Shown: piece after piece, positions 1-47,300 of the stretch
Position numbering within the stretch: position 1 is the first letter of the stretch
How the letters are laid out: every line of letters starts with the position of its first letter
From: Escherichia phage ECBP1
Reading direction: 5' to 3' (one strand)
Length of the DNA: 64,000 nt
Sequence record: NC_018854.1
The notes under the pieces: model-generated
Database searches by the model: none
What the model saw: only the letters and a program-made list of their open reading frames with translations
Told to the model about the DNA's origin: nothing
Program-made: the position numbers and the translations under genes

Positions 1-137
1 TTAGCAAAGATGCTACCGTAAGGAATAGTAGTGGTAATCCTAACCATCCGGACTATTACTCTAGTATAGCACGCATCATCACCAGAAAGCCCCATCTTAC
101 AGGATAACTTACACAATTAAGCTCTTAAGGATATTAA

Positions 138-464
138 ATGAAACTTACTAAGATAGGTTATGCTGATGGACCTATTTCCACTACCCATACAACCTTACAA
201 GACCTTGTACCTGGTAGACTCACTCCTATTATCCTAGTACCAGATGATCAGACTCTACACGAAGTTAAAGGATTAGCTTTACTACTAAATAAGGTGACTA
301 TTGTAGAAGTTCTTGAACCAGGAAAGGAATTACCGTGGTCCTCCTACATGTACTCCCCCTGGCATGTGAATACGGATAAGTACACTCTTACCTTTGGTAT
401 TACCAGTGAACTGCAAACTCCTCACTTGGTATATGCTTCCTCCTATTTAACTGCTTATAAGTAG
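138..464 (+). CDS. hypothetical protein (weak call; may be non-coding leader)
   Basis: 108-aa ORF from the track; unusual composition; no recognisable motif; repeat-rich non-coding DNA follows at 480-660. Confidence 0.25.
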   Translation: MKLTKIGYADGPISTTHTTLQDLVPGRLTPIILVPDDQTLHEVKGLALLLNKVTIVEVLEPGKELPWSSYMYSPWHVNTDKYTLTFGITSELQTPHLVYASSYLTAYK

Positions 465-665
465 GATAGCTATCATATTTTTGCATATGAAAAGTAGCAT
501 AGTTATGTATGGCTACAGTGGTGTGGCTGGGGCTACACCCTTACACTCAACCATCCCCCCCGGTATGTTGACGGTGTAGCCACTACCCTACCCCACCTTA
601 CACGTTACACATGCTCCGCATGTTATGGACATGTCGTCCTATCATCAACTATTGGAGCTATCATC

Positions 666-989
666 ATGACTACTCAAGCTACTGTACGTATGACCGCAGG
701 AACTTTACTTGGTACTGTTAACTCAGCTGCTACTACTGTTGCAGATACATTCGGTACAGCAACTAAAGCAGTAGGTATGCTTAATTCATATGTTAGTACG
801 ATGGCAGAGAAACAAGCCATTCGTACTAAATTAGAAATGCATACCTTTGTTAATAAACTGGCAGAGGAAACAGCTATGACTGAGACTCTGCGTAAGAAAA
901 GTATCGAGGAATTCTGCAAGGATTCAGAGAACGCTCGAATCTATAACGCAGAATATTCCAAAGTAATTGACATCCTGACTAAAGACTAA
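666..989 (+). CDS. hypothetical early protein
   Basis: 107-aa ORF; intrinsic terminator immediately downstream (998-1023). Confidence 0.5.
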   Translation: MTTQATVRMTAGTLLGTVNSAATTVADTFGTATKAVGMLNSYVSTMAEKQAIRTKLEMHTFVNKLAEETAMTETLRKKSIEEFCKDSENARIYNAEYSKVIDILTKD

Positions 990-997
990 GTCACATA

Positions 998-1023
998 GGA
1001 GACTCTTCGGAGTCTCCTTTTAT
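998..1023 (+). terminator. intrinsic terminator
   Basis: Stem ggagactc / gagtctcc with ttcg loop, followed by ttttat. Confidence 0.6.
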
Positions 1024-1076
1024 AAACATTAGATAGATAGTCAAAAGTAGATAACTATCTACTTTGGAGATAGATA

Positions 1077-1415
1077 ATGGCTAAGTACATTTGCATAAAA
1101 TCATTAACTAAAGATGTTCCTGTAGGAACAGAACTGGTAGGAAAATACCACTCACCAGGAAGATTCATTCTTACTGAAGATAGTAAATTAAAGTGTGTAT
1201 CAGGAACAGGACCACGTTGGTACAAAGATGACCAACTACCTCTTGCAGGTGCTTTATGGGTATGGCAATGCCAAGACCCTATTAAAGCTTTAGAACGCTA
1301 TGAGAAAGCTGTTCGTGCCCATGAAATGCTTGGTGCTCAAGACCCGGAAGATTGGCCTGGAATTGAGAAAGAGTATGAATCTGCTAAGGCAGAATTGCTT
1401 AATCATTTGTATTAA
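1077..1415 (+). CDS. hypothetical early protein
   Basis: 112-aa ORF; palindrome gtagat-aact-atctac just upstream; hairpin 1432-1450 downstream. Confidence 0.5.
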   Translation: MAKYICIKSLTKDVPVGTELVGKYHSPGRFILTEDSKLKCVSGTGPRWYKDDQLPLAGALWVWQCQDPIKALERYEKAVRAHEMLGAQDPEDWPGIEKEYESAKAELLNHLY

Positions 1416-1431
1416 AAACCAAGACCGCAGG

Positions 1432-1450
1432 CGTTGTCTGCAAGACAACG
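1432..1450 (+). promoter_or_regulatory. 8-bp stem / 3-nt loop hairpin (candidate N4-type vRNAP promoter hairpin or terminator-like element)
   Basis: cgttgtct-gca-agacaacg perfect inverted repeat; no T-tract after it. Confidence 0.3.
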
Positions 1451-1570
1451 ACGCTCCGCGTCTTATGGATGATGTAAATGCATCCACTAATCATTGAACT
1501 TTTATCCCTTTGTTTGGGTGTTCTCACCGACGAGTTCACCCGTAAATCACATAAATCTGGAGAGTACAAA

Positions 1571-1951
1571 ATGTCTATTCAAAAATTCACTTTCGGTCAA
1601 TCTAACACTGCTGCTTCTACTGCTAAAACTGATAAACCAAAAGCTCAGTTCTGGCTGAACATTGGTTATGTAGCTAACGAAGGCTCTGATGATGAGAAAT
1701 TCATCTCTCTGCCTACTGGTATTCCACTGGATACTCAGGAGCCACTGCCTACTAATAGCAGCAATGCTGACTTCCGTGCTATGCGTTGTGCACAGAACGA
1801 CTTGCTGGAACAGTTAATTGAGTATGCTCAGAACCTGGAACCAGGTGAAGAAGGTATCATAAACCTGCAAGTTCAACTTCGTCGTGTGAAAGCAGAGGCT
1901 GCTGACATCCCAGCAGACGAGAATAAATATGCTCGTAAACTGACTTTCTAA
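1571..1951 (+). CDS. hypothetical protein (alternative upstream start at 1478)
   Basis: ATG at 1571 preceded by GGAGA; terminator follows at 1961-1990. Confidence 0.5.
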
Positions 1952-1960
1952 TCAACCAAT

Positions 1961-1990
1961 AGACTCCCTTCGGGGAGTCTTTTATTTTTA
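1961..1990 (+). terminator. intrinsic terminator
   Basis: agactccc-ttcg-gggagtct followed by ttttattttt. Confidence 0.65.
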
Positions 1991-2091
1991 ACTAGACGAT
2001 AAGCTATTTCTACTTTTTGAGTATCTTTAGACGAAGGGTACTGAAACAGTAACCAGATAGATATAGATTTATATTAGAAGAGGAATTAACC

Positions 2092-2280
2092 ATGTTAGAC
2101 TTCATCGCTTTCTGTGTAATCTTCTACTTTCTGGGTTGGAAGTTACGTCATAAATGGTTGCTTATTGCTAAACTGCCATTCGTTACTATCGAGTGTCTCA
2201 TTGCTAGTATTAAACACAAGAAAGCAATGACTCAGTACTACAAGCAACAAGCAGAAGAGTTTGCAAAGAGGAACCAGTGA
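2092..2280 (+). CDS. small membrane protein
   Basis: 62-aa ORF with hydrophobic N-terminal segment (FIAFCVIFYFLGW). Confidence 0.4.
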   Translation: MLDFIAFCVIFYFLGWKLRHKWLLIAKLPFVTIECLIASIKHKKAMTQYYKQQAEEFAKRNQ

Positions 2281-2459
2281 TATTCACTAACATAGATGAT
2301 GCCATTGAAGAATGTATCTTTCGTAGGTATCACACTGGTGTACAGAAACGACACTATGGTGTTGTACAACTCAATGGCTATCAAATGGTTGTAAGAATTG
2401 TACGTAAGAATAAACCTTTTAACTTTATGTGGAGTACTAAATCATGCGTAAATCATTAA
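2277..2459 (+). CDS. hypothetical protein
   Basis: 60-aa ORF; start overlaps upstream stop. Confidence 0.35.
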   Translation: MIFTNIDDAIEECIFRRYHTGVQKRHYGVVQLNGYQMVVRIVRKNKPFNFMWSTKSCVNH

Positions 2460-2572
2460 TCATGGGAACCAGAGAAGACGTGCAAAAGATGAAAGAACGT
2501 CTGGTTGCTAAGAAACAGACGTCTGAACCAGTACGTAAGATTGTTACCTTCAACCATTCATGTATCAAGTAA
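2444..2572 (+). CDS. small ORF (42 aa), low confidence
   Basis: ATG-initiated basic ORF below the track threshold, ending just before terminator 2576-2610. Confidence 0.2.
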   Translation: MRKSLIMGTREDVQKMKERLVAKKQTSEPVRKIVTFNHSCIK

Positions 2573-2575
2573 CTA

Positions 2576-2610
2576 GGAGTCCTCCATTAGGAGGGCTTCT
2601 ATTTTTTATT
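2576..2610 (+). terminator. intrinsic terminator
   Basis: agtcctcc-atta-ggagggct followed by tctattttttatt. Confidence 0.6.
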
Positions 2611-2650
2611 CCTGAATAGTTAGATATGTATTTAAATAGGAGAAATAACC

Positions 2651-2959
2651 TTGAATGAAATTGTTTGTATACTTCCTCAATCAGCTAAGATAGCTGACAG
2701 GAATATCCGTATCCACTTACCCTTTCCATTAAGTAATCCATTCACTCGTAATGAAAGAACCACAGTAGAAGATGTAGAGGTAGCTTATGAAGCTTACCTC
2801 CGTAATCGTCTTATTAGTGGGGACAAACTAATTACAGCAGAGATGGAAAGGATTGCATCCTTTGTAACAGATAGTACAGGCAAGCCTGTTGGCTTAATTG
2901 GTACAGAGTCTGATGTTAACGTTATTCGTAAAATATTAATGGAGGCATTAAATGGCTAA
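2651..2959 (+). CDS. hypothetical protein, DUF4326-like paralog lacking the Cys/His motif (TTG start)
   Basis: SNPF...VEVAYEAYLRNRL resembles GNPF...VIAKYKVWLQEQI of ORF 4159-4539. Confidence 0.4.
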   Translation: MNEIVCILPQSAKIADRNIRIHLPFPLSNPFTRNERTTVEDVEVAYEAYLRNRLISGDKLITAEMERIASFVTDSTGKPVGLIGTESDVNVIRKILMEALNG

Positions 2960-3182
2960 ATATAAGGTAATACGCTTTGCAGATAATGAACGTGGTATTG
3001 GTGCAGAAGTAGAGAAAAAAACATTCTTTGGAACCAGTACATGGGTAAAAGTTAGTACACATGGACACAGTGAGTGCTTCGATAAATGGGTTAATAAAGA
3101 AACCGGTGTATCCGGTTATGCTGATACTACCCAATCAGAGATTAATGACTTCTATACTGCCAATCACATTACTAAGGAATAA
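2952..3182 (+). CDS. hypothetical protein
   Basis: 76-aa ORF; start overlaps upstream stop. Confidence 0.4.
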   Translation: MAKYKVIRFADNERGIGAEVEKKTFFGTSTWVKVSTHGHSECFDKWVNKETGVSGYADTTQSEINDFYTANHITKE

Positions 3183-5156: not shown

Positions 5157-5209
5157 TTAATGGCTGCTCCGCAGCTTTTGGTTATTAATCACATTTAGGA
5201 GAATAAGCG

Positions 5210-36542: not shown

Positions 36543-36571
36543 AGCCCCTCATTAGAGGGGCTTTTTCATTT
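36543..36571. terminator. bidirectional intrinsic terminator between the converging plus and minus blocks
   Basis: agcccctc-atta-gaggggct with an A-tract upstream and T-tract downstream. Confidence 0.65.
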
Positions 36572-39500
36572 AGTTAGTAAGGTTGAGCCAAGGGTTCAGG
36601 TTGTGGGCACGTAAGCCTTGACCGAAACCGAAGGAGTAACCGAGATTTCCCTGTGCAGCAATACTAAAGATGTTGTCCTGAATAGGCAGACCAACGTTAC
36701 CAAACATGGTAGGGGTTGGAGCCAACATAGCCATAGCAGCATGGACTGGGTTATTACGAATCATGGACACTGCAACTTTTGCAGAACGAATCTTAAAGTT
36801 ATAGAACCACATCAGACCAACACTTTCCATATACCCACGGAATCGACCAGGCAGACGGTCATAGTTAATGAACTCTTCCGTTACACGCCCCAGTGCTTCT
36901 TCACGAGTCTTACCTTTACGCTGAGTCAGTTCATCATAGATGATTGCTTTAGCAATAAAGTCAGAGTACTCAACCGTCTTCTGAATACCCTGGAAGAGAG
37001 CAGTATCCTTAGTGATAAGTGCATAGCGACCTGCGTTACGAACAGACTTAGGCAGCTTATCAGCCAGCTTTTCCATGTATTCGTGGAGTTTACCTTCAGT
37101 AATCAGGATGTCATCACGACCAATACCAGCATCTGCAATTGAAGAGAACTCACCAGCTTCCAACAGAGGCCAGATACTCAAACGTTTATGGCTATCAGAG
37201 ATGGACTGAATCTCAGCCTTGAGTTTACGAATCTGGTTCGGGTTAGTAGCTGCACGTAATTCTGCTTCTGCATCTACCTGACGCAGACGAGATTTCAGGT
37301 ACTGGTTAATCTCAGCAGTCTTCTGTGAAATGCTCTTAGCAATGTTCTTAACCGGTACACCACGAGCAACCATCTGATAAAGGTTAGCCAGGAAGTTAAC
37401 AGCAGGTACGACTACTGACTTAACCACAATCAGAGTCTTAGCTTCTTTAACTAAGTTCTGAACCAGGTTCTCACCACCCATTACATACTTATAGGCACGG
37501 TTGCCAAAGACACCCAGCATAGCTTTCTTGAAGGTATCCAGTGTTTCTGGTGACCAACGGGAATTACCAGACCAGGCATCACCTACAGAAGCTGCACGAT
37601 AACCCAGAGCATCGTTGAGCATGTCACGACGTACCCATAATTCACCCGGACCAAACAAACTTTCTGCTTTCTGACGGGTTTCACTGTTCATCAGCTTAAG
37701 TGCATCGGCAGTTACTGGGTCCAGTTTAGAACCAAGAAGGTTAACGTACTGGGACTTATTAGAAGCAGACATCTTAATGTCGTTCTCATACATGCTATGC
37801 AGGTTTTCAATCAGCATATCGTTGAATCGCTGAGCCTTAGCTTCTTCCACCTGACGACCACGCCATACACCGATTGCACGAGCAAGATGGTTCTCACCTT
37901 CAATGTGCTTCAGCATGTTAGGGTCAATGGATTGCTCATAAGCAACCACATTACCATTGGCATCATATACAGGCAGCAGTGGTTCATTACCACGTTCACC
38001 ACGAGCCAGTGCTTTAGTGATACGGTCTACGGAAGGCTTGTCAGTGATACGACCAGCTACCATGGTTCCCATAGTAAAGCCCGTACCGAGATCTACACCA
38101 CCAGCAGTATTACGAACGTTCTGTAAGATACCTTGCGAGAAAGGAGCCTGTGCCTGTACTGGTGCAAAGTAGTAGCTACGTGCTGGTCCACGATTAGCAG
38201 AGCTACCCTGATAAGTACCAAGACGTACATAGGATTTCTCAATCAAATCAGCAAACTGACTATCTTCAGCAACAATCAGGTTAACACCCTGCTTGTTCTC
38301 GCTAGGGATATACCCTTTGTACTGGTTCAAGGTTGCACGACTATCAGACTTAGCTTTAGCCATTTCATCTTTACGCTGACCAACCAGATAAGAAGTAGCA
38401 AAGTCCATGCCTTCAATTTCTGTCTGAGCCAGTGAAGATAACATCTCACGGTCAGTCTTATTCATTGCTTCCAGTGCATACAAAGTAATCAGTTTATCCA
38501 ACTGAGCTACATCTACAACAGAACGTGTAGTCTTACGTTCACCCAGTAAACGAGAAATTGCAGTAGCATTACGTAGCAGGTTGTTACCAACCGTACCTTT
38601 AATCATGTACTGAGCCAGTTGCTTAGATTTACGATTAATCAGAGGCCAGTTTCGTCCAGCTTGTTTCTGCAAATCTGCTTCCAGTTTATTAACCTCACGG
38701 TCAACAATCTTTTGGTCAGTCAGCAAGTCACGGATTTCATCCAGAGACATAGTGTCACGCAGAACAGCTAAGTCAGTTTTACCCATACCAGTATGCATTG
38801 CTTTCCACTCTTCATTAGTCAGCTTACGGCTGAACTTAGATGCGATAGTGGTAGGCAAGTGTTCACGGAACTGTTGACGGTCAGCCTGTACCTGTGCACG
38901 TACTGCCTTAATCAAATCATATACAGAAGCATTGCTCTTAGTACGTCCGATTATGTCATTAACCAGGTCATGGAAAGGTTGCCATACTTTACCCTGGTTC
39001 ATTGCAGCCATAACACCTTCGGCTACGATTGCACCATTCTTCTCTGTAGCAATAGCAGCTACCAGTTGTGCAGCATGAACAGCACCTTTGACCAATGGAT
39101 TCTTGGTATTAGCTGCAATTTCACGAGCACCTTCTAAAGCACGGGTAGACAATGCATCAATAGAGTCCACCAAATACTGGTTAGCACGGTCGATAGCATT
39201 ACCGGTAGGAGTAGCAACGGAATCATAGAAGGATTCTGCGTTAAGACTGGTCTGCATGATTGTCTGAGCTAATGCATCCATACCTTCCTGTACGTTAGTG
39301 GCTTTAGTATCACCTGCTACACGAGCGTTCAGACTAGCCATTGCAGCAGTACCGATGTTAGTCAGCATTGCATCAACAGTATTGCCGGATTTCTTATCTG
39401 CTTTCATGACAGGAATATCAGCCAGTACCTTACGTACCTCTTCACTTACCATTGCCAGACCAACAAAGGTAGGTAATAAGGAAGAGCGACCTTGAGCATC

Positions 39501-42500
39501 AAACTCAATGTTATTAGCACCCATGATGGTATCGAACTTCTGCTGTGCATAATAACGGTCAGCAGGGTTAGTACTATCCGGGTCAGCCATAAAAGCTTCA
39601 ACAGTCAGGTTCTTAGTAACATGTGTGTAGTATTCCTGTGCACGAGCCATAGCAGCTGGGTTAATAGCAGCCTCAGTAGCCAGTGCAGCAACAATGTTAG
39701 TAAAGAGGCGTTGTTCCTGCATATTCATGGTGAAGCCATGAGCCTGAACATCACGAGTTACTTTAGTTGCATTCACTACTGCATCAGAAAACTTACCTTT
39801 TCGAATTACTTGCTGTACTGGTTCTGAACCGATGTAGTCAGTAATCAGCTTATCAAAAGTCTTACCTAACTCTTCCAGACGAGTATTGTCACCATATGCT
39901 TTGTTATGGAACAGGGTAGTGTCTTTGGCCACAGCAGCAGTAGGAGCTTGTCCACGCATTACTACAGCAGAGTTAAACAGTAGGCCAGAGAACATATCAT
40001 CTGCATTAGCCGGAGCTTTCTTACGTCCAAATACCAGACGCTTGATTGCTTCATATACAGCCTGAACCATAGCTTTAAGTGCAGTGGTTTTCTTCTGCTT
40101 ACCAATCAATTCACGGTTGGTTAAGCCCCATGCCATGTACTCATTCAATGCAGCAGCTTTAGCCATTGCTGGTTCAATGAAGCCATTAGACAAATGACCA
40201 TTAATGGTATTGAGAGCATCAGCATATGCTTCACGTACTGCCGGGGGTTCATTCTTAACATCCAGAGTACGGAACTGGTTCATCAGGTCTTCAATGTTCT
40301 GGACTGCTTCATTAGGAGTGCCTTCATAGTGAGCCAGTACAGATTCAAAAGTAGAAGCATGAACCAATTCATGAACCAGAGTCTCTAAAGAAGGAGTAAC
40401 TAAATAGATGGTCTTATCATCAAAGTTAGTCCAGCCGTATGCATTACCTGCTTCAGCAGCTTCAATATCTTCCGGTGCTGGGCGAGTAATATTCTTCTCA
40501 ATAGCGTAGGCATCCAGTTGAGAAGGCGTACCATAAACAACCTTGTAGTCTTTAGCAGCAAGGGATTTCTGTACTTCTTTCAATACTGCTTGCTGTTCTG
40601 GAGACATCTCTTTAGCCAGCTTAGTGATAGCAGTATTGGACAACAGACGTACACCAGACTTCAGTACACGACCAACCTGTTCCATTGCCGGTACTTCTTT
40701 AGCTGGTTCTGCTTTAGCAGCACGTACTGCATCACGACGCTTATTTAATTCAGCATCAAACAGTTCGTTCAGCTTTGCTACTTGCTGGTCTACAGTCAGA
40801 CCTTCAAGAGAAATTTTACCGTCGTTCACATATGGAGCACCAACAGCAGCCATCTGGTCAACAGTGACTTGTACCTGGTTCATTACCTTGTGGCGAATAT
40901 CTACACCCAGAGCAATGTTACGCAGGTTACGTTCAATCTGTTCAGCACCAACACGTAACAGGTCATCAGTAGCACCTTCACGCTGGTCATATTCCAGAGC
41001 AGACTTAGCGATAGCCTGTTTGGTTTTATCAGACAGTTTGCTGAAGTCTACATTCTTCATGAACTTAGCGTAGGAGTCATAAACATTCTTGATAGGGTTA
41101 CCCTGCCAGGAAGTATATACAGCCTCATTAGCTTTACGACTTGCATCAGTAATGTCATTGATACCAATGTTCATACCATCAAAGATTTTCAGGGTATTCT
41201 TCGGAGCACCTTTCATAGTAGAAAGGGTCTGCATCATCATGCCATCACCAGTACCGATGGTCATAAATGGAATACCTGCTACACCTGCCTGTGAAGGAGC
41301 ATAGATGCTCATTGGCACACGCATACGGTCATCTAAGTTGGTAGCCAATACTTGGTTAGCAACATCAGTATTCTCACTACCAGCAATGTAGAAAGTCTGG
41401 GAACCAGTCTCAATCATTGGAGCCAATGGAGATAATGATTCCTGGATTTCATTCAATTCTTTCTGTGTTAAAAAATCACCCTTCTTCCATGTTGGGTCTT
41501 TTTCTTTTTCTGCCAGTTTCTCCTGAACACGTTGCTGGAACATGTCTTGCAGAACCAGAGATTGAATCTGGGTAGCTTTCTGCAAGTTCTCAGTAGAGTA
41601 CATCAGACCTTCACCCACGGTATTTCGGATACCAGTACGCATTGGTTCAACGAACAGATGGAGCATATTCTCCTGCAAGTTCTTCAGAGCATTACCTGAT
41701 ACAGTAAACTTCTGAGGGTCTAACTTACCAGTCAGAGCACCATCTACCTGCTGAATAGACAACTCACCTTTACGCATAACCGGAACATTACCAGTTAGTG
41801 CTTCCATAGAAGTAAGGAAAGTATCCAGCATAGCCTGAGCATCAGCCTCAGACGCAGCCTCCTTACCAAACATAGCCATAGCTGGGGAAATGCTAGGGTC
41901 AGCAGCACGGGCTTGTAGAACGTCACTGAATCGTTCATAGATGACATCAGTAATTGCACTAACCATTTTGCCTGCAATACCACGAGCACCAGAACCATAG
42001 ATGGTAATAGTCAGTGGGTTTTTAGCGATACCACGTTTCAGGTCCAGAGTACCATCTTCATTCAAATTAAAGTCTTTAATGAACAGGTCCATTAACTTCT
42101 GGAGATGGTTCATCTGGTTCATAACAGGAACGTTGTTACGGTAAGTACTACGTAATTCATTCAGTGCTTGTTGCAGACCATTAGTGGATGCTTCATACAG
42201 GTCAACGCTGTCCTCATGCGAATGATGCTCGTTCATGGTCTTACCAGCTTTACCGAAGAACAAACCACCTTTGGCAGTATTCTTAATCCAGTCTGGGGTG
42301 AACTTACCACCAGTCATTAATACCATTGCGTTGATTGGTCCGTTGGTTACACCATCAGCTTCAACGTACAGTGGGGTATTAAAGTTGGTACGGTCATCAC
42401 TGTTAAGGTAACGGGCATATTCCATCAGAGCCATAAGAGCTACGAATGATTTATCACTACCCAAAGAAGTCTTCAGAATATCCACTGCATCGGCAGGTAA

Positions 42501-45500
42501 GTGTCCAGACTTATCAAATTCAACCATCATATCAACGGCAGGTTTAAGTTTGCCTTCCAGAGCTTTAGTCAGCTCATCTGACATAACTTCACGGGACATT
42601 TTATGAACTTTGATACCCAATGCCTGAGCCAGTCCAAGCTGGAAGTCAGAGAACGTTTGACTGTTTTCATTACTTAAGTCGATGGTAGAGAAGGTTGGAA
42701 GGATTGCTTCACGAACCAGCTTACTGGATTGTGGGTTGTTCTTACCAAGCATCTGCATACGACCTACACGGGTCATGTTGTAGCCGTAGTGAATAGGTGT
42801 ATCCAGTCCATTCTCCTGTTCCTTAATTTGATTGATTACACCAAACAAGGAATCATACGCCATGGACACGGACAGGTTTTTACCTTCCAGAGACTTAGCA
42901 GTATTCACATTCAGCAATTCTGGATTAAGAGCACCAGCACCCATTAACTCCAGAATGTTGTCACAACCCAATGCTTCATAGAAATTAACCATCGGCATAT
43001 GTACACGAAACTCAGTAGCTTGTTCTGCTTTGAGAGCAGCTTTCTGTTCCGGGGTATTCTTAACAGCCGGGTTACGTAACTGAGTTTGAGCCACGGAAGG
43101 AATGTCATCACCCAGATACAATTTCTCTACTGGTTCTAAAAGGACAGTTTCCTCAATAGCAGTAGGGAATTTATTAATGGCATCGTTATCATCCAGCTTC
43201 TCAATGGTATACAGACCAACAGTCTTATTAGATTCTGGGTCAATCTCAGACACATCTAACATGGACTCTTTAACTTCACCCATCTCAATAAGGGAAGACA
43301 GAATCTCTGTAGCCATTGCCATTGGGATACCCTTGGTATACCCCAGAGGTGCATTAGGATTACGATTCAAACCCCAATAGGATTCAATCTTTTGAGCCAG
43401 TGAGTTAGTAGCTTCAACCAGGGTCTGAGCATTCTCGAAGTCAGCCAGAATACCTTCTGGTAGCAGAGATGCTTCCACACCAGTAATAGCAGCTACGTCT
43501 TTCATGTCTTTAACAGCAGCATTCTGTGTAGCAGTCAATCGCCATTGCAGACCAGCAAGTACAGCAGTTTCTAATAGCTGGTCATTGAACTTAAAGGTGT
43601 CACCATCTTTCTCTACGATGTTAAGTAACTTACCACCTACCCAACGGTTAGCCTCAGTACCTTCCGCAAAACGTTTACCAACGTTCTTGTTAGCAAGGAA
43701 CTTAGCCAGACGGTCAGACAGAGTAGTCTTCAGAGTTTCACCAAACTCAAATAAGTCCTGATAACGCTTAATCACATCACTTGTGAGAGCGTTATTTTCT
43801 TTTTGAGTGAATGCTTCAAAGCGAGCAGCAGAAGACAGTGCTTTCTTAACATCAGTCAAAGGAGATTCAGAACCAATGGTACGAGACTTAGGCTCTTCTG
43901 GTAGGGAAAATGCTTTAAGGAACTGGTTTGGTGTCTTATCATTATTATAGACAGGGAACACTGTTTCCATTTCCGATAAAGGTTTACCACCAACGGTATA
44001 GTCTGCTTTCAGTTGAGCCAGTGATACTTCTTCCTTCTCAACGTTATTGGTATTACGTTCAGACGTATCTACACCAATCTGAATAAGTGCATTGTTTGCT
44101 TCAACGAAAGATTGAACAGTATTGAATTGTTCAGCAGTCAGTTTCTGATTATCAAACAGTTGCAGAGATACAAATGGTTGCTCACTACCTTTATAGAAGG
44201 TAGAGCGAATAGCACCAGTATCCAGAGACATATCACGATAACCATCATGCCCAAATACGTCGGACAAGCTGATATGGTCGCCATTAGAACCAACCACAGT
44301 ACCATCAGCAAACAACCAAGGGCTTTCTCTACGGTCACCATTCTTATTAAGAGTTTCCTGTGAAATAGTATTTTCTTTCACATAAGCATCTCTTTCAGAT
44401 TCAGTAGTAGAGACTTCTTCTGCTTTTGGACTAGTCTCTTTAGTAGGAGCAGTCTTATTTTCTACCACTGGTTTATCTTTAGGCTGTACAGTAGTGGTGT
44501 CCTCTTGCACTAGTGCAGGAGTTTCATCAACCTGATTCACTGGTTCATTAGTCTGTTGAGACTGAGTGGCATCAAGACCACCTTGACGGAACTCTTTAAC
44601 TACCTGGGCAGCTGGCTTGTTCAGACGTGAATCCAACGAGGTAACTTTCACATGAGAAACATTAAGCTCCGGGTAAGCCGTAGCAAGTGCGTTAGCAATG
44701 TCAGCTACGGTCTTAGCTTCCAGTGCTACTTGCTGGGCAAACTTAACAGACTTGGTATCGTAAGGATTGACACCGAGGCCAGTACGACTACGTACCCATT
44801 CACGGGAAGGCGAGAGAGCCTGATAATGAACAGACTTATTCTTATCCGCATTCCCCGAAATCAGATGCTCATTCAACGCTCCGACCTTATTCTGCATGTG
44901 CTGGGCGAACTTCATAAAATCGCTCAGATAAGCGGAGGCCAAATCGAAGTTACCAGAGTTATACGCAGAACGAATGCGTTTCGCATGTTGCAACGCAGAG
45001 TACTGTCCTTCATTAGAACGAGACTCATCGGTTTTAATTTGTTTACTAACAATGTCTTGAGGACGTAAGCCTAGTTCTTCTGCTTTAGCGTCGAACTCTC
45101 GTGCACCCTGTAATAAGGCAGCAGCAGATTGCAGGGCAGCACGTTGACGATTCCCCAGTGTAATCTTACCTTCACTTGCATGTTTCAGAACCATGTTCAC
45201 TGAATCTGCATCCAGCACTTCTGGAGATACATCAGCAGCCATAGCAATGTTGTTTGCTTGGGCTTGATTAGCTTCTTCAGTAGCTTTCAGCTTACCCGCT
45301 TCAGCCTGTTCCTGAATCATGGAATGGATGGCACGAAATGCACGGAGTACTTTAGGGGTATTCTGTACGTTAGCCATCAGGCCGGAGAATTGGTCTACGA
45401 TTGCAGCAGCAGGGGAATCTTGTTCCAGATTAGCCAAAGCACCCGGGTCACGGTTAATGAAGCTATCCATAGACATGATATTGTCATACATCTGGATTGC

Positions 45501-47300
45501 AGCTTCCATTTGAACGTTAGGGTCTTCGGCAGTATTAACCAAGTCAGCCATCTTCTGAATAGCTTCTACACGGTTAGTGGAACCAGAAACAGCTTCACGG
45601 ATTGCTGGGTTAGTTTGTTCCAATTCTACCGGGTCAAACTTCATTGCTTGAGTTAAGTCAGCAGCATACTGGGTAGCAGCAGCTTTCTCTTCTGGAGAAA
45701 TATCCATTGCATCCACTGCTTCCTGAACAGTTGCTTGAGCTTGTTCTGCCTGAGCAGTAGCTTCTTGTGCAGCAGCGTTAACCGTAGCATCAGATACGGG
45801 GGATGCTTGTTCATTACGCTTAGCAACTTCTTCCCCACGTTGAACCAGGATGTTAGTAATAGGAGAAGCTACTTTTGCTAGTGCCTTACCAGCCAAAGAA
45901 GCACCAGCCAGGGTAGTACGTACAGCAGGACCAACGGCAGCACCAGCAGCCTTAACAGTTGCACCAGGAGCTTGAGCAACTCCAGCAGAACCGAAGCCAT
46001 ACAATGCACCAAGACCGGTTTGTTCACCCACACCTTTAAGCAAATCACGCTTAGCATCTACATTACCTTGAATTGCCTTGTTCTGTGCAAACTGACTTGT
46101 ACCAGACTGGATACCTTCTTCTACAGTCTCACGCAGCATGTTAGAACCAGCACCAGCCAGTGAACCTACCTTAAGTGGATTAAGTTCAAACTTGGATACC
46201 AGTGGACCAGTAAGAGCAGCAACCGGAGCAGTTAAGCCAGCAGCAGTAATACCCGTTTCAGATGCAGTCTGGCGACGTGCTTCTTCAGGAGATAAACCGT
46301 CTTTAATATGCTGTTGGTATACAGGAGATTTAGCAGCCAATTCACTGAATGGCATTTCCATAATTTCATTAGCAGTCTGTTGGTATGCACCACCAGCTTC
46401 CATACCACCAATTGCTATAGCAGGTGCAGCAACACGACCAGTAGCTAATGCAGTACGTGCAGGACGTGAACCTAACTCAGCAGCTAAGGTAATGCCTTTA
46501 ACAGCTTTATCACCACCTACCATTACTTTACCGAGTGCAGATACACCACGAATCAATGGACCGCCGGTAAAGAGAGAACCAACACCCTCAGCCAGACCAT
46601 CAGTAGCAGCCATGCCATTGGACAAGGTGTTAGCAACAGAATCGTAAGCATCTCGACCAATGCGAGACAGGGAAGCAACGAGATCACTTTCTCCTTTAGC
46701 AATATCCTGCTTATAGAGTTTCTCGTTTTCCTGTGCAGATATTACGTTCTGGTTCTGTACTACATTACGACGAGCATTTAATGCATCAGACTGTAGGTTG
46801 TGTACACCTTTATTCAACCAGTCAAGACCGGAAGCAATGGTTGCCCCGGCATTATCATTGACCAAGCCTGTACCAAGAGCAGCAATGCCCCCAAGAGTAT
46901 TAGCAACACCAAGACCAACACCAGAAAGGGTATCACCAAGTGCTTCACCATATGTACGACTCTTAGTTAAATCACGACGAACAGCATTAGCTGCATTGAC
47001 ACGAGCATTGAGAATGTCCATTCCTTGCTCATTGCCATACTTGTTTATGATTTCAAGAGGAGAGGCATTAGTAAAATCTGCCTGAAAAGAACCTGGGTCA
47101 AATGCACCAGCACCTAAGTTACCAGCACGGCCTGCCTGTAATTGGTAAGCGTTCTGTGGGGTTAGTTGGAAGGGGCTTTGCCCTTGTTCAGCTTGTTTCC
47201 GAGAGGTTGCAGTAGAGACATCGACTTGCTTAGCAGTAGTGATGCTGTCTGCGAAACCTGCCAGACGGTCAAATGTTGACATAGCATGATTCCTGTTCAA
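36570..47300 (-). CDS. virion-encapsidated RNA polymerase (N4 gp50-like giant vRNAP)
   Basis: 3576 aa; T7-like RNAP motifs LYVEADGVTNGPINAM, TITIYGSGARG and KIFDGMNIG in the central region. Confidence 0.85.
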   Translation of the reverse strand: MNRNHAMSTFDRLAGFADSITTAKQVDVSTATSRKQAEQGQSPFQLTPQNAYQLQAGRAGNLGAGAFDPGSFQADFTNASPLEIINKYGNEQGMDILNARVNAANAVRRDLTKSRTYGEALGDTLSGVGLGVANTLGGIAALGTGLVNDNAGATIASGLDWLNKGVHNLQSDALNARRNVVQNQNVISAQENEKLYKQDIAKGESDLVASLSRIGRDAYDSVANTLSNGMAATDGLAEGVGSLFTGGPLIRGVSALGKVMVGGDKAVKGITLAAELGSRPARTALATGRVAAPAIAIGGMEAGGAYQQTANEIMEMPFSELAAKSPVYQQHIKDGLSPEEARRQTASETGITAAGLTAPVAALTGPLVSKFELNPLKVGSLAGAGSNMLRETVEEGIQSGTSQFAQNKAIQGNVDAKRDLLKGVGEQTGLGALYGFGSAGVAQAPGATVKAAGAAVGPAVRTTLAGASLAGKALAKVASPITNILVQRGEEVAKRNEQASPVSDATVNAAAQEATAQAEQAQATVQEAVDAMDISPEEKAAATQYAADLTQAMKFDPVELEQTNPAIREAVSGSTNRVEAIQKMADLVNTAEDPNVQMEAAIQMYDNIMSMDSFINRDPGALANLEQDSPAAAIVDQFSGLMANVQNTPKVLRAFRAIHSMIQEQAEAGKLKATEEANQAQANNIAMAADVSPEVLDADSVNMVLKHASEGKITLGNRQRAALQSAAALLQGAREFDAKAEELGLRPQDIVSKQIKTDESRSNEGQYSALQHAKRIRSAYNSGNFDLASAYLSDFMKFAQHMQNKVGALNEHLISGNADKNKSVHYQALSPSREWVRSRTGLGVNPYDTKSVKFAQQVALEAKTVADIANALATAYPELNVSHVKVTSLDSRLNKPAAQVVKEFRQGGLDATQSQQTNEPVNQVDETPALVQEDTTTVQPKDKPVVENKTAPTKETSPKAEEVSTTESERDAYVKENTISQETLNKNGDRRESPWLFADGTVVGSNGDHISLSDVFGHDGYRDMSLDTGAIRSTFYKGSEQPFVSLQLFDNQKLTAEQFNTVQSFVEANNALIQIGVDTSERNTNNVEKEEVSLAQLKADYTVGGKPLSEMETVFPVYNNDKTPNQFLKAFSLPEEPKSRTIGSESPLTDVKKALSSAARFEAFTQKENNALTSDVIKRYQDLFEFGETLKTTLSDRLAKFLANKNVGKRFAEGTEANRWVGGKLLNIVEKDGDTFKFNDQLLETAVLAGLQWRLTATQNAAVKDMKDVAAITGVEASLLPEGILADFENAQTLVEATNSLAQKIESYWGLNRNPNAPLGYTKGIPMAMATEILSSLIEMGEVKESMLDVSEIDPESNKTVGLYTIEKLDDNDAINKFPTAIEETVLLEPVEKLYLGDDIPSVAQTQLRNPAVKNTPEQKAALKAEQATEFRVHMPMVNFYEALGCDNILELMGAGALNPELLNVNTAKSLEGKNLSVSMAYDSLFGVINQIKEQENGLDTPIHYGYNMTRVGRMQMLGKNNPQSSKLVREAILPTFSTIDLSNENSQTFSDFQLGLAQALGIKVHKMSREVMSDELTKALEGKLKPAVDMMVEFDKSGHLPADAVDILKTSLGSDKSFVALMALMEYARYLNSDDRTNFNTPLYVEADGVTNGPINAMVLMTGGKFTPDWIKNTAKGGLFFGKAGKTMNEHHSHEDSVDLYEASTNGLQQALNELRSTYRNNVPVMNQMNHLQKLMDLFIKDFNLNEDGTLDLKRGIAKNPLTITIYGSGARGIAGKMVSAITDVIYERFSDVLQARAADPSISPAMAMFGKEAASEADAQAMLDTFLTSMEALTGNVPVMRKGELSIQQVDGALTGKLDPQKFTVSGNALKNLQENMLHLFVEPMRTGIRNTVGEGLMYSTENLQKATQIQSLVLQDMFQQRVQEKLAEKEKDPTWKKGDFLTQKELNEIQESLSPLAPMIETGSQTFYIAGSENTDVANQVLATNLDDRMRVPMSIYAPSQAGVAGIPFMTIGTGDGMMMQTLSTMKGAPKNTLKIFDGMNIGINDITDASRKANEAVYTSWQGNPIKNVYDSYAKFMKNVDFSKLSDKTKQAIAKSALEYDQREGATDDLLRVGAEQIERNLRNIALGVDIRHKVMNQVQVTVDQMAAVGAPYVNDGKISLEGLTVDQQVAKLNELFDAELNKRRDAVRAAKAEPAKEVPAMEQVGRVLKSGVRLLSNTAITKLAKEMSPEQQAVLKEVQKSLAAKDYKVVYGTPSQLDAYAIEKNITRPAPEDIEAAEAGNAYGWTNFDDKTIYLVTPSLETLVHELVHASTFESVLAHYEGTPNEAVQNIEDLMNQFRTLDVKNEPPAVREAYADALNTINGHLSNGFIEPAMAKAAALNEYMAWGLTNRELIGKQKKTTALKAMVQAVYEAIKRLVFGRKKAPANADDMFSGLLFNSAVVMRGQAPTAAVAKDTTLFHNKAYGDNTRLEELGKTFDKLITDYIGSEPVQQVIRKGKFSDAVVNATKVTRDVQAHGFTMNMQEQRLFTNIVAALATEAAINPAAMARAQEYYTHVTKNLTVEAFMADPDSTNPADRYYAQQKFDTIMGANNIEFDAQGRSSLLPTFVGLAMVSEEVRKVLADIPVMKADKKSGNTVDAMLTNIGTAAMASLNARVAGDTKATNVQEGMDALAQTIMQTSLNAESFYDSVATPTGNAIDRANQYLVDSIDALSTRALEGAREIAANTKNPLVKGAVHAAQLVAAIATEKNGAIVAEGVMAAMNQGKVWQPFHDLVNDIIGRTKSNASVYDLIKAVRAQVQADRQQFREHLPTTIASKFSRKLTNEEWKAMHTGMGKTDLAVLRDTMSLDEIRDLLTDQKIVDREVNKLEADLQKQAGRNWPLINRKSKQLAQYMIKGTVGNNLLRNATAISRLLGERKTTRSVVDVAQLDKLITLYALEAMNKTDREMLSSLAQTEIEGMDFATSYLVGQRKDEMAKAKSDSRATLNQYKGYIPSENKQGVNLIVAEDSQFADLIEKSYVRLGTYQGSSANRGPARSYYFAPVQAQAPFSQGILQNVRNTAGGVDLGTGFTMGTMVAGRITDKPSVDRITKALARGERGNEPLLPVYDANGNVVAYEQSIDPNMLKHIEGENHLARAIGVWRGRQVEEAKAQRFNDMLIENLHSMYENDIKMSASNKSQYVNLLGSKLDPVTADALKLMNSETRQKAESLFGPGELWVRRDMLNDALGYRAASVGDAWSGNSRWSPETLDTFKKAMLGVFGNRAYKYVMGGENLVQNLVKEAKTLIVVKSVVVPAVNFLANLYQMVARGVPVKNIAKSISQKTAEINQYLKSRLRQVDAEAELRAATNPNQIRKLKAEIQSISDSHKRLSIWPLLEAGEFSSIADAGIGRDDILITEGKLHEYMEKLADKLPKSVRNAGRYALITKDTALFQGIQKTVEYSDFIAKAIIYDELTQRKGKTREEALGRVTEEFINYDRLPGRFRGYMESVGLMWFYNFKIRSAKVAVSMIRNNPVHAAMAMLAPTPTMFGNVGLPIQDNIFSIAAQGNLGYSFGFGQGLRAHNLNPWLNLTN

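Follow-up and report, generated by a model that had tools for sequence, protein, structure and literature searches.

Introduction

Left ends of N4-like phage genomes have been characterized in several phages. The termini and the short direct repeat of N4 have reportedly been determined, as have the left terminus and the direct terminal repeat of G7C, and the N4 early promoter P1 is said to be a hairpin promoter of the virion RNA polymerase (vRNAP). As cited in the work on IME11, the N4 ends carry 3′ single-stranded extensions, the left end being unique and the right ends heterogeneous (PMC3896407). In IME11 itself, read-start counts show peaks starting with GTGGCTGGGGCTACACCC (240 reads), TGTGGCT (180 reads), and TGGCTGG (102 reads), with a single peak at the other boundary of the repeat (PMC3896407). 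For Mimir124, PhageTerm yielded a repeat of 401 bp and a left end similar in position to that of G7C, the latter being verified by Sanger run-off (PMC11640937).

Early transcription has been described as well. N4 has three early promoters conserved from −17 to +1, with a GC-rich heptamer centred at −11 between inverted repeats; its vRNAP contacts template bases −12A, −11G, −10G, −9C, and −8G, and the start lies eight nucleotides downstream of −8 (PMC4496689). Early promoters P1–P4 have been annotated in KP8 (PMC6950046, Table 1).

Here we consider the left part of a 64,000-nt stretch of the genome of Escherichia phage ECBP1 (NC_018854.1), referred to in its entirety as the window. Positions 480–660 had been described in an earlier note as a repeat-rich non-coding region ahead of the first confident early gene, possibly an origin, a packaging-proximal sequence, or a promoter cluster near a genome end.

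Identity and Layout of the Genome

The first 3 kb of the window match 82 phage records, nearly all from Gamaleyavirus (G7C-like, N4-like, Schitoviridae); identity is 100% to phage Bp4 over window positions 440–700, and 87–99% to other Gamaleyaviruses. The window represents a genome of this genus in circularly permuted form. Positions 1–522 contain the last gene of the right end of the genome, with the ORF 138–464 matching G7C gp71.2. On the other side of the region, the ORF 666–989 (+ strand, 107 aa), preceded by the ribosome-binding site GGAG at 654–657, is the homologue of N4 gp1 (phrog_5020). It is followed by a terminator-like hairpin, GGAGACTC-TTCG-GAGTCTCC and then TTTT, at 998–1021 of the same strand, which can be read straight from the sequence. 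A search with the Rfam 15 covariance models produced no matches in 480–660 up to E = 1, and two weak matches elsewhere in 1–3000.

Terminus and Terminal Repeat

The left ends of the relatives converge on one site. In the records as deposited, position 1 of G7C corresponds to window position 524, and position 1 of N4, to position 525. Ungapped mapping of the terminal peaks of IME11, which is 98% identical here, places them at 523 (240 reads), 522 (180 reads), and 524 (102 reads), with the right boundary at 924, and the annotated repeat start of Mimir124 aligns with 522, its repeat being 401–403 bp long. Many GenBank records begin at positions corresponding to 523–531. Since the termini of N4, G7C, IME11, and Mimir124 align within 4 nt, at TGGCTGGGGCTACACCC, the packaged DNA of ECBP1 almost certainly begins at 522–525, which by homology would be both the physical left terminus and the left boundary of the direct terminal repeat. 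The genome end suspected in the earlier note is thus borne out: the region is strongly conserved in the alignment of N4-like left ends that the note had called for, and the termini data available for the close relatives IME11, Mimir124, and G7C place their ends at this very site. The phages differ in the precision of the end, as IME11 has three adjacent left-end positions and heterogeneity at both ends, whereas the left end of N4 has been reported to be unique.

The direct terminal repeat is predicted at 523–924. As the window, being permuted, carries one collapsed copy of the repeat, we infer its length, ~402 bp, by homology. The Bp4 record, labelled by its depositor as circularly permuted, repeats window positions 523–933 at both ends. 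A repeat of ~400 bp ending inside gp1 is shared with N4 (390–440 bp), IME11 (401 bp), and Mimir124 (401 bp); G7C differs in that its record annotates the terminal repeat as 1–1160 and 71758–72917, that is, 1160 bp. Hence, the repeat length is variable within the genus, ~401–411 bp in IME11, Mimir124, and Bp4 versus 1160 bp in G7C. Because the repeat ends inside gp1 (at 924), the right end of the virion DNA should carry P1 and a truncated second gp1.

The terminal reads of IME11 as printed (PMC3896407, Table 3) continue as GGGGCTACACCCGGA, while the IME11 genome and window positions 523–545 continue as GGGGCTACACCCTTA, and one of the printed reads has an extra T. This mismatch may have arisen in typing or sequencing, or it may reflect a real difference at the DNA end.

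Early Promoters and the Virion RNA Polymerase

The most important repeat of the region is one that the earlier note had missed, a perfect stem-loop at 609–623 (+ strand). This hairpin, ACATGC-TCC-GCATGT, has a 6-bp stem and a 3-nt loop and contains the heptamer GCTCCGC at 613–619 (5′-GCGGAGC-3′ in the template strand). In the alignment, each of its columns falls on the corresponding one of N4 P1, GTTGC-TTC-GCAAC, and the conserved TTATGGACATGT downstream is aligned as well. The non-template nucleotides T615, C616, C617, G618, and C619 yield A, G, G, C, and G in the template, in agreement with the N4 promoter rule. Given the N4 spacing rule (PMC4496689), the transcription start of P1 is predicted to be G627 (+ strand), 8 nt past C619 (position −8) and 11 nt past the loop centre C616.

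Comparison with N4 P1 shows the same distance from the left end (~85–100 nt), the same location upstream of gp1, the same orientation and downstream motif, a stem of 5–7 bp closing a loop of 3 nt, and, centred at −11, a GC-N3-GC heptamer. The differences are confined to the distal stem, CATGC/GCATG here versus GTTGC/GCAAC in N4, these changes being compensatory, and to the loop, which is TCC here (GGA in the template, as in N4 P2) and TTC in N4 P1 (GAA in the template). The homologous site of KP8 carries an early-promoter annotation (MG922974, regulatory features); KP8 shares the consensus NNNGCTCCGCNNN followed by YTATGGA, and its P1 is located at 89–110 from the left end, but four sites are predicted there versus three here, and, of an inverted repeat described below, the GTGTAGCC arm is missing from the KP8 leader.

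Two more hairpins of this type are found on the same strand: GACGC-TCC-GCGTC followed by TTATGGA at 1450–1462, upstream of the gp2 homologue, and GCTGC-TCC-GCAGC followed by TTTTGG at 5163–5175. The heptamer GCTCCGC occurs only three times on both strands of the 64-kb window (at 613, 1453, and 5166), always on the + strand and always within the leftmost 5.2 kb, and each copy is part of a perfect stem, 5 bp or longer, that is followed by TT(A/T)TGG. The chance of three further complementary pairs around three random heptamers is about four in a million. By homology, we identify 609–623, 1450–1462, and 5163–5175 as the N4-type vRNAP hairpin promoters P1, P2, and P3, respectively.

The pairing is also visible across the family. 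A set of 22 distinct promoters, drawn from eight lineages, shows covariation at the three variable positions of the stem, AU, CG, UA, and GC pairs all being seen; 87% of cells are paired, a fraction inflated by the selection of promoters with stems of at least 5 bp, 27 cells are changed on both sides, and none of 500 shuffles reaches the observed score. When the 3′ partner is slid by 1–3 columns, pairing falls to 21–44%. In nearest-neighbour folding, the P1 hairpin is not unusually stable (z = −1.4 to −1.6).

Some features of the transcribed regions deserve mention. The predicted P1 transcript opens with a stem-loop, GGAC-ATGTC-GTCC (627–639, + strand), at which relatives pair with other bases. 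Such a structure, with +1 as its first paired nucleotide, is frequent in predicted early transcripts and is seen at about half of the 27 distinct promoters, with two-sided changes preserving the pairing: GGAC..GTCC at P1, GGATG..CATCC at P2 (1467–1485), GGA..TCC in Xanthomonas phage RiverRider, and GGGTA..TGCCC in the metagenomic contig L056; the relatives concerned include L001, L035, L047, L056, and L164. The stem-loop may shield the 5′ end of the RNA or belong to the initiation region. In G7C (L005, 503–515), an extra hairpin AACGC-TCC-GCGTT lies ~35 nt past gp1 and is not followed by the TTATGG initiation motif; it may be a decayed promoter or a part of a terminator.

The enzyme that would read P1–P3 is assigned by homology to the gene at 36570–47300 of the − strand, which encodes a vRNAP of 3576 aa. 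Its central domain matches the structures of N4 mini-vRNAP, including the promoter complex 3C3L, with E = 0, and it retains K114, R119, W129, K268, K849, K850, D901, and R904, residues reported to read the hairpin in N4 mini-vRNAP. Thus, as far as homology can tell, the phage encodes a polymerase matching its hairpin promoters. The only promoter-contact residue that differs among those checked is K267, replaced by N here, which is one of the two intercalating-hairpin lysines melting the base of long stems.

Leader and Flank of the Terminus

Between the terminus and P1 lies a leader (524–608) that is C/A-rich on the top strand and has a GC content of 0.50, compared to ~0.39 in its surroundings. 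Relatives differ here by 1- and 2-nt indels, and hence the leader is non-coding. The ORFs 481–579 and 611–721 were rejected as coding, as the indels of relatives there are not multiples of three. A small hypothetical protein has been annotated over ~560–660, that is, over the leader and P1, in Mimir124 (72455–72565), VLCpiP4b (P4b_00036), nithesis, and UE-M6; judging by the indel pattern of relatives, the small ORFs annotated over the leader are probably spurious.

Three kinds of motifs recur in the leader. The first is an array of YTACAC hexamers (533–611, + strand), CTACAC at 533 and TTACAC at 541, 598, and 605, with an inverted GTGTA at 574–578. The four TACAC copies in 89 nt, compared to 0.089 expected, form the densest cluster in the 64 kb, and the same four YTACAC positions are retained in N4 and KP8. 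The second is a C7 run (555–561), the sole one in the window, followed by GGTATG (together 555–567, + strand). The third is the CCCTACCCCACC block (586–597, + strand), whose core CCTACCCCAC is invariant in all lineages found. The leader motifs are unique in the genome, and P2 and P3 lack them. Among relatives, including L014, L055, L164, and N4, the C run varies from C6 to C12, and its flanks are constant.

The order of the blocks, namely, the terminus, the C-run with GGTA, CCCTACCCCAC, and the hairpin, is common to Enquatro-, Gamaleya-, Moo-, and Kaypoctavirus, RiverRider, and L056. Clear TACAC pairs are limited to the genera of Enquatrovirinae, RiverRider and L056 having CACAC-rich tracts instead. 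A pattern consisting of C7, CCTACCCCAC, and GCTYCGC retrieved 18 loci from IMG/VR, 17 of them in contigs of 70–76 kb, a length typical of schitovirus genomes, and one in a 7.9-kb fragment. The IMG/VR scan with TTATGGACATGTNGTCC gave mostly chance matches and eight true relatives; a relaxed pattern also gave mostly chance matches, and among the matches listed the hairpin filter kept a single additional relative (L164). Two contigs, L052 (7.9 kb) and L050 (73.6 kb), have the C-run and CCTACCCCACC blocks and lack a convincing GCTCCGC hairpin or TTATGG; these may represent leaders that have diverged, or chance similarity.

In RiverRider (Riverridervirus), the leader is matched by blastn at 76% identity over window positions 544–629 (RiverRider positions 19–100), and it is the sole nucleotide-level match to this phage in the first 4 kb; blastn with a 3.3-kb early-gene query did not find RiverRider, whose gp1 shares 39% of residues. 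Nucleotide identity is higher in the leader than in gp1 both for N4 (76.9 versus 71.3%) and for RiverRider (67.8 versus 57.9%).

Conservation extends to the other side of the cut. The flank at 455–522 (+ strand), which is the end of the unique right-hand region, contains a −10-like TATCAT and then ATTTTTGCAT..AAAA..CATAGTTATGTATGG; the hexamer is TATAAT in G7C and N4. The flank is kept at the Gamaleya-, Enquatro-, Kaypocta-, and Moovirus junctions and occurs once in the 64-kb window, the RiverRider flank being weakly similar. It contains a local direct repeat, AAGTAGGATAGCTAT at 459–473 and AAGTAGCATAGTTAT at 492–506, the copies being 33 nt apart, and a look-alike, AAAAGTAGATAACTAT, is seen at ~1044–1060, upstream of the ORF starting at 1077. 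Two candidates for promoter motifs were considered and rejected: WATATTTTTGCATR as a recurring middle-promoter motif showed no enrichment, and AAAAGTAGNATAGNTAT (457–473, 490–506) as a recurring promoter motif had seven matches versus 3.7 expected, with no good match outside 457–506. A G-quadruplex or i-motif was considered for the bottom strand, which is G-rich, and set aside, as the G-tracts are non-canonical in arrangement (with a 24-nt loop) and are not kept in N4.

In the openly searchable literature, we found no description of the leader motifs.

Short Repeats of the Region

The repeats that had drawn attention to this region are present, with positions correct to within a base: GGCTACA at 511–517 and 531–537, its inverted counterpart GTGTAGCC at 574–581, the C7 tract at 555–561, TTGACG at 568–573, and the hairpin GTGTGGC-TGGG-GCTACAC at 521–538, with seven pairs including one G–T. 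As repeats, they stay within chance expectation. Of 2000 shuffles of 480–660 that preserved dinucleotide composition, 26% contained a direct repeat of 8 nt or longer, and 9%, an inverted repeat of 9 nt or longer. When both strands of the leader, the 521–538 hairpin, and P1 were folded as single-stranded DNA, the z-scores were weak, from −0.8 to −2.2.

The full inverted repeat, GGCTACACC (531–539) and GGTGTAGCC (573–581), encloses the C7 run (531–581, + strand). It is retained as 8 bp in N4 (GGCTACAC/GTGTAGCC), as a shifted 7 bp in G7C, and as a shifted 6 bp in RiverRider, and is lost in Kaypoctavirus and L056; as its first arm is invariant, there is no covariation. The hairpin at 521–538 (+ strand, −6.4 kcal/mol, z = −1.3) straddles the cut, and hence its 5′ arm would be largely outside the packaged left end. 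N4 lacks this hairpin, and in Mimir124 it is disrupted; both it and the first GGCTACA copy (511–517) are poorly conserved and lineage-specific.

These repeats may have no function of their own, being by-products of the YTACAC array and of chance; this is the simplest interpretation, and we consider the odds for and against it to be even. The same repeat lengths arise in 9–26% of shuffles, neither the first GGCTACA copy nor the 521–538 hairpin is conserved, and all listed repeat arms contain the recurring TACAC/GTGTA core; on the other hand, the 531–539/573–581 repeat persists in N4 despite ~23% divergence of the leader. We take the meaning of the region from conservation rather than from repeat statistics.

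Discussion

The region 480–660 very probably spans the packaging-cut junction of a G7C-like genome and the start of its early transcription unit. It is an N4-type left end, with a terminus, a short direct repeat, and the early promoter P1, an arrangement already known due to the experiments on N4 and to termini mapping or annotation for G7C, IME11, Mimir124, and KP8, and ordinary for this phage family. All features defining such an end that can be recognized in a sequence appear to be present. The position of the terminus, the identity of P1–P3, and the matching polymerase are supported here by homology and sequence comparison.

Taken together with the data on N4, this suggests the following order of events. 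In replicating DNA, the unique right end (to 522) would abut a single copy of the terminal repeat, and the packaging nuclease would cut at 522–524, generating the left end of the virion DNA. If ECBP1 behaves as N4, this end would enter the cell first (PMC4496689). The first 85 bp of the packaged DNA would be the conserved C/A-rich non-coding leader, followed by P1. Under negative supercoiling and with the host SSB, the template strand would extrude 5′-ACATGC-GGA-GCATGT-3′, gyrase driving the extrusion and SSB stabilizing the hairpin, as in N4 (PMC4496689). The injected virion RNA polymerase would then bind the hairpin and, again by analogy with N4, start RNA at about G627, ~11 nt past the loop centre. 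P1 would drive gp1, with transcription presumably stopping at the 998–1021 hairpin, and P2 (1450) and P3 (5163) would work in the same way.

What the leader contributes to this scheme is less certain. Its components, the four YTACAC copies, the run of 6–12 C followed by GGTA, and CCCTACCCCACC, may be the parts of a cis-element shared from coliphages to a Xanthomonas schitovirus. The leader plus the flank 455–522 occurs once in the genome, directly abuts the terminus, shows conservation to the left and to the right of the cut, and has no counterpart at P2 and P3. On these grounds, our leading, though still somewhat less than evenly weighted, suggestion is that the two together are a cis signal for the sequence-specific terminal cut. 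The packaging-proximal sequence proposed in the earlier note is plausible. Slightly more tentatively, the 85-bp leader, perhaps with the same flank, may be a dedicated cis-element distinct from the promoter, serving either as a cut signal or as a docking site for the DNA end injected first. Phage T7 offers a parallel, short repeat arrays reportedly flanking the terminal repeat at its concatemer junction. The two would share a direct-terminal-repeat genome with specific ends, short repeated motifs beside the boundary, and a left end that enters first, but the repeats are different and there is no sequence relationship, so this is an analogy only.

A less likely function of the leader (524–608) is in ejection and early transcription rather than in packaging. 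The YTACAC, C7, and CCCTACCCCACC motifs would be bound by a protein injected with the DNA, for example, by a vRNAP domain without catalytic function or by some other ejection protein, and the free DNA end bound in this way would let gyrase build up the supercoiling needed for extrusion of P1. We know of no protein that binds the leader. The leader does lie directly upstream of P1 on the end that enters first, its motifs are kept as far as RiverRider together with the vRNAP system, and N4 promoters need supercoiling, although the DNA is linear (PMC4496689). However, the same motifs are absent from P2 and P3, and N4 promoters function without the leader on plasmids and single-stranded oligonucleotides (PMC4496689).

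Still less probable is a role in replication, in which the inverted repeats near the end (531–539/573–581 or 521–538) would act after resection of the 5′ strand, the 3′ end of the bottom strand folding back and priming synthesis, or else the YTACAC copies would be origin iterons. In vitro, replication of N4 begins with loop-back priming at its ends. For the 3′ terminus of N4, priming by a hairpin is attributed to Ohmori 1988, as cited in PMC3896407, and the 531–539/573–581 repeat is kept in N4 as GGCTACAC/GTGTAGCC; still, this repeat is lost in Kaypoctavirus and L056 and shows no covariation, the fold-back leaves a 7-nt unpaired 3′ tail, and the repeats are within chance, with weak fold z-scores. 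As for the origin proposed in the earlier note, four YTACAC copies could be iterons, but the leader, with its ~50% GC, contains no AT-rich unwinding element, and this reading finds no specific support.

The promoter cluster suggested in the same note stands only as the N4-type hairpin promoter at 609–623, absent from its list, as there are no sigma-70 sites in 524–665. That TTGACG is the −35 element in a host sigma-70 promoter cluster is scarcely credible, and this reading was rejected, since, although TTGACG (568–573) resembles TTGACA and one sigma-70-like site (9/12) exists at 447–476, upstream of the cut, the scan found no −35/−10 pair with a 16–18-nt spacing in 524–665 and two sites in 3 kb versus 8.4 expected, TTGACG has no −10 partner, the 17-nt spacing leading to CCCCAC, which is not a −10 hexamer, and the early genes of N4-like phages are transcribed by the virion RNA polymerase rather than by the host enzyme (PMC4496689).

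These results fix the true genome start at about window position 523, which matters for annotating the permuted assembly, and identify the three early promoters of the phage. The question of the leader is a modest one, of specialist concern rather than a surprise. Nevertheless, if the leader is such an element, schitoviruses would have a cis-signal for end formation or DNA entry, which would bear on their packaging and on ejection alongside a polymerase of 3500 residues.
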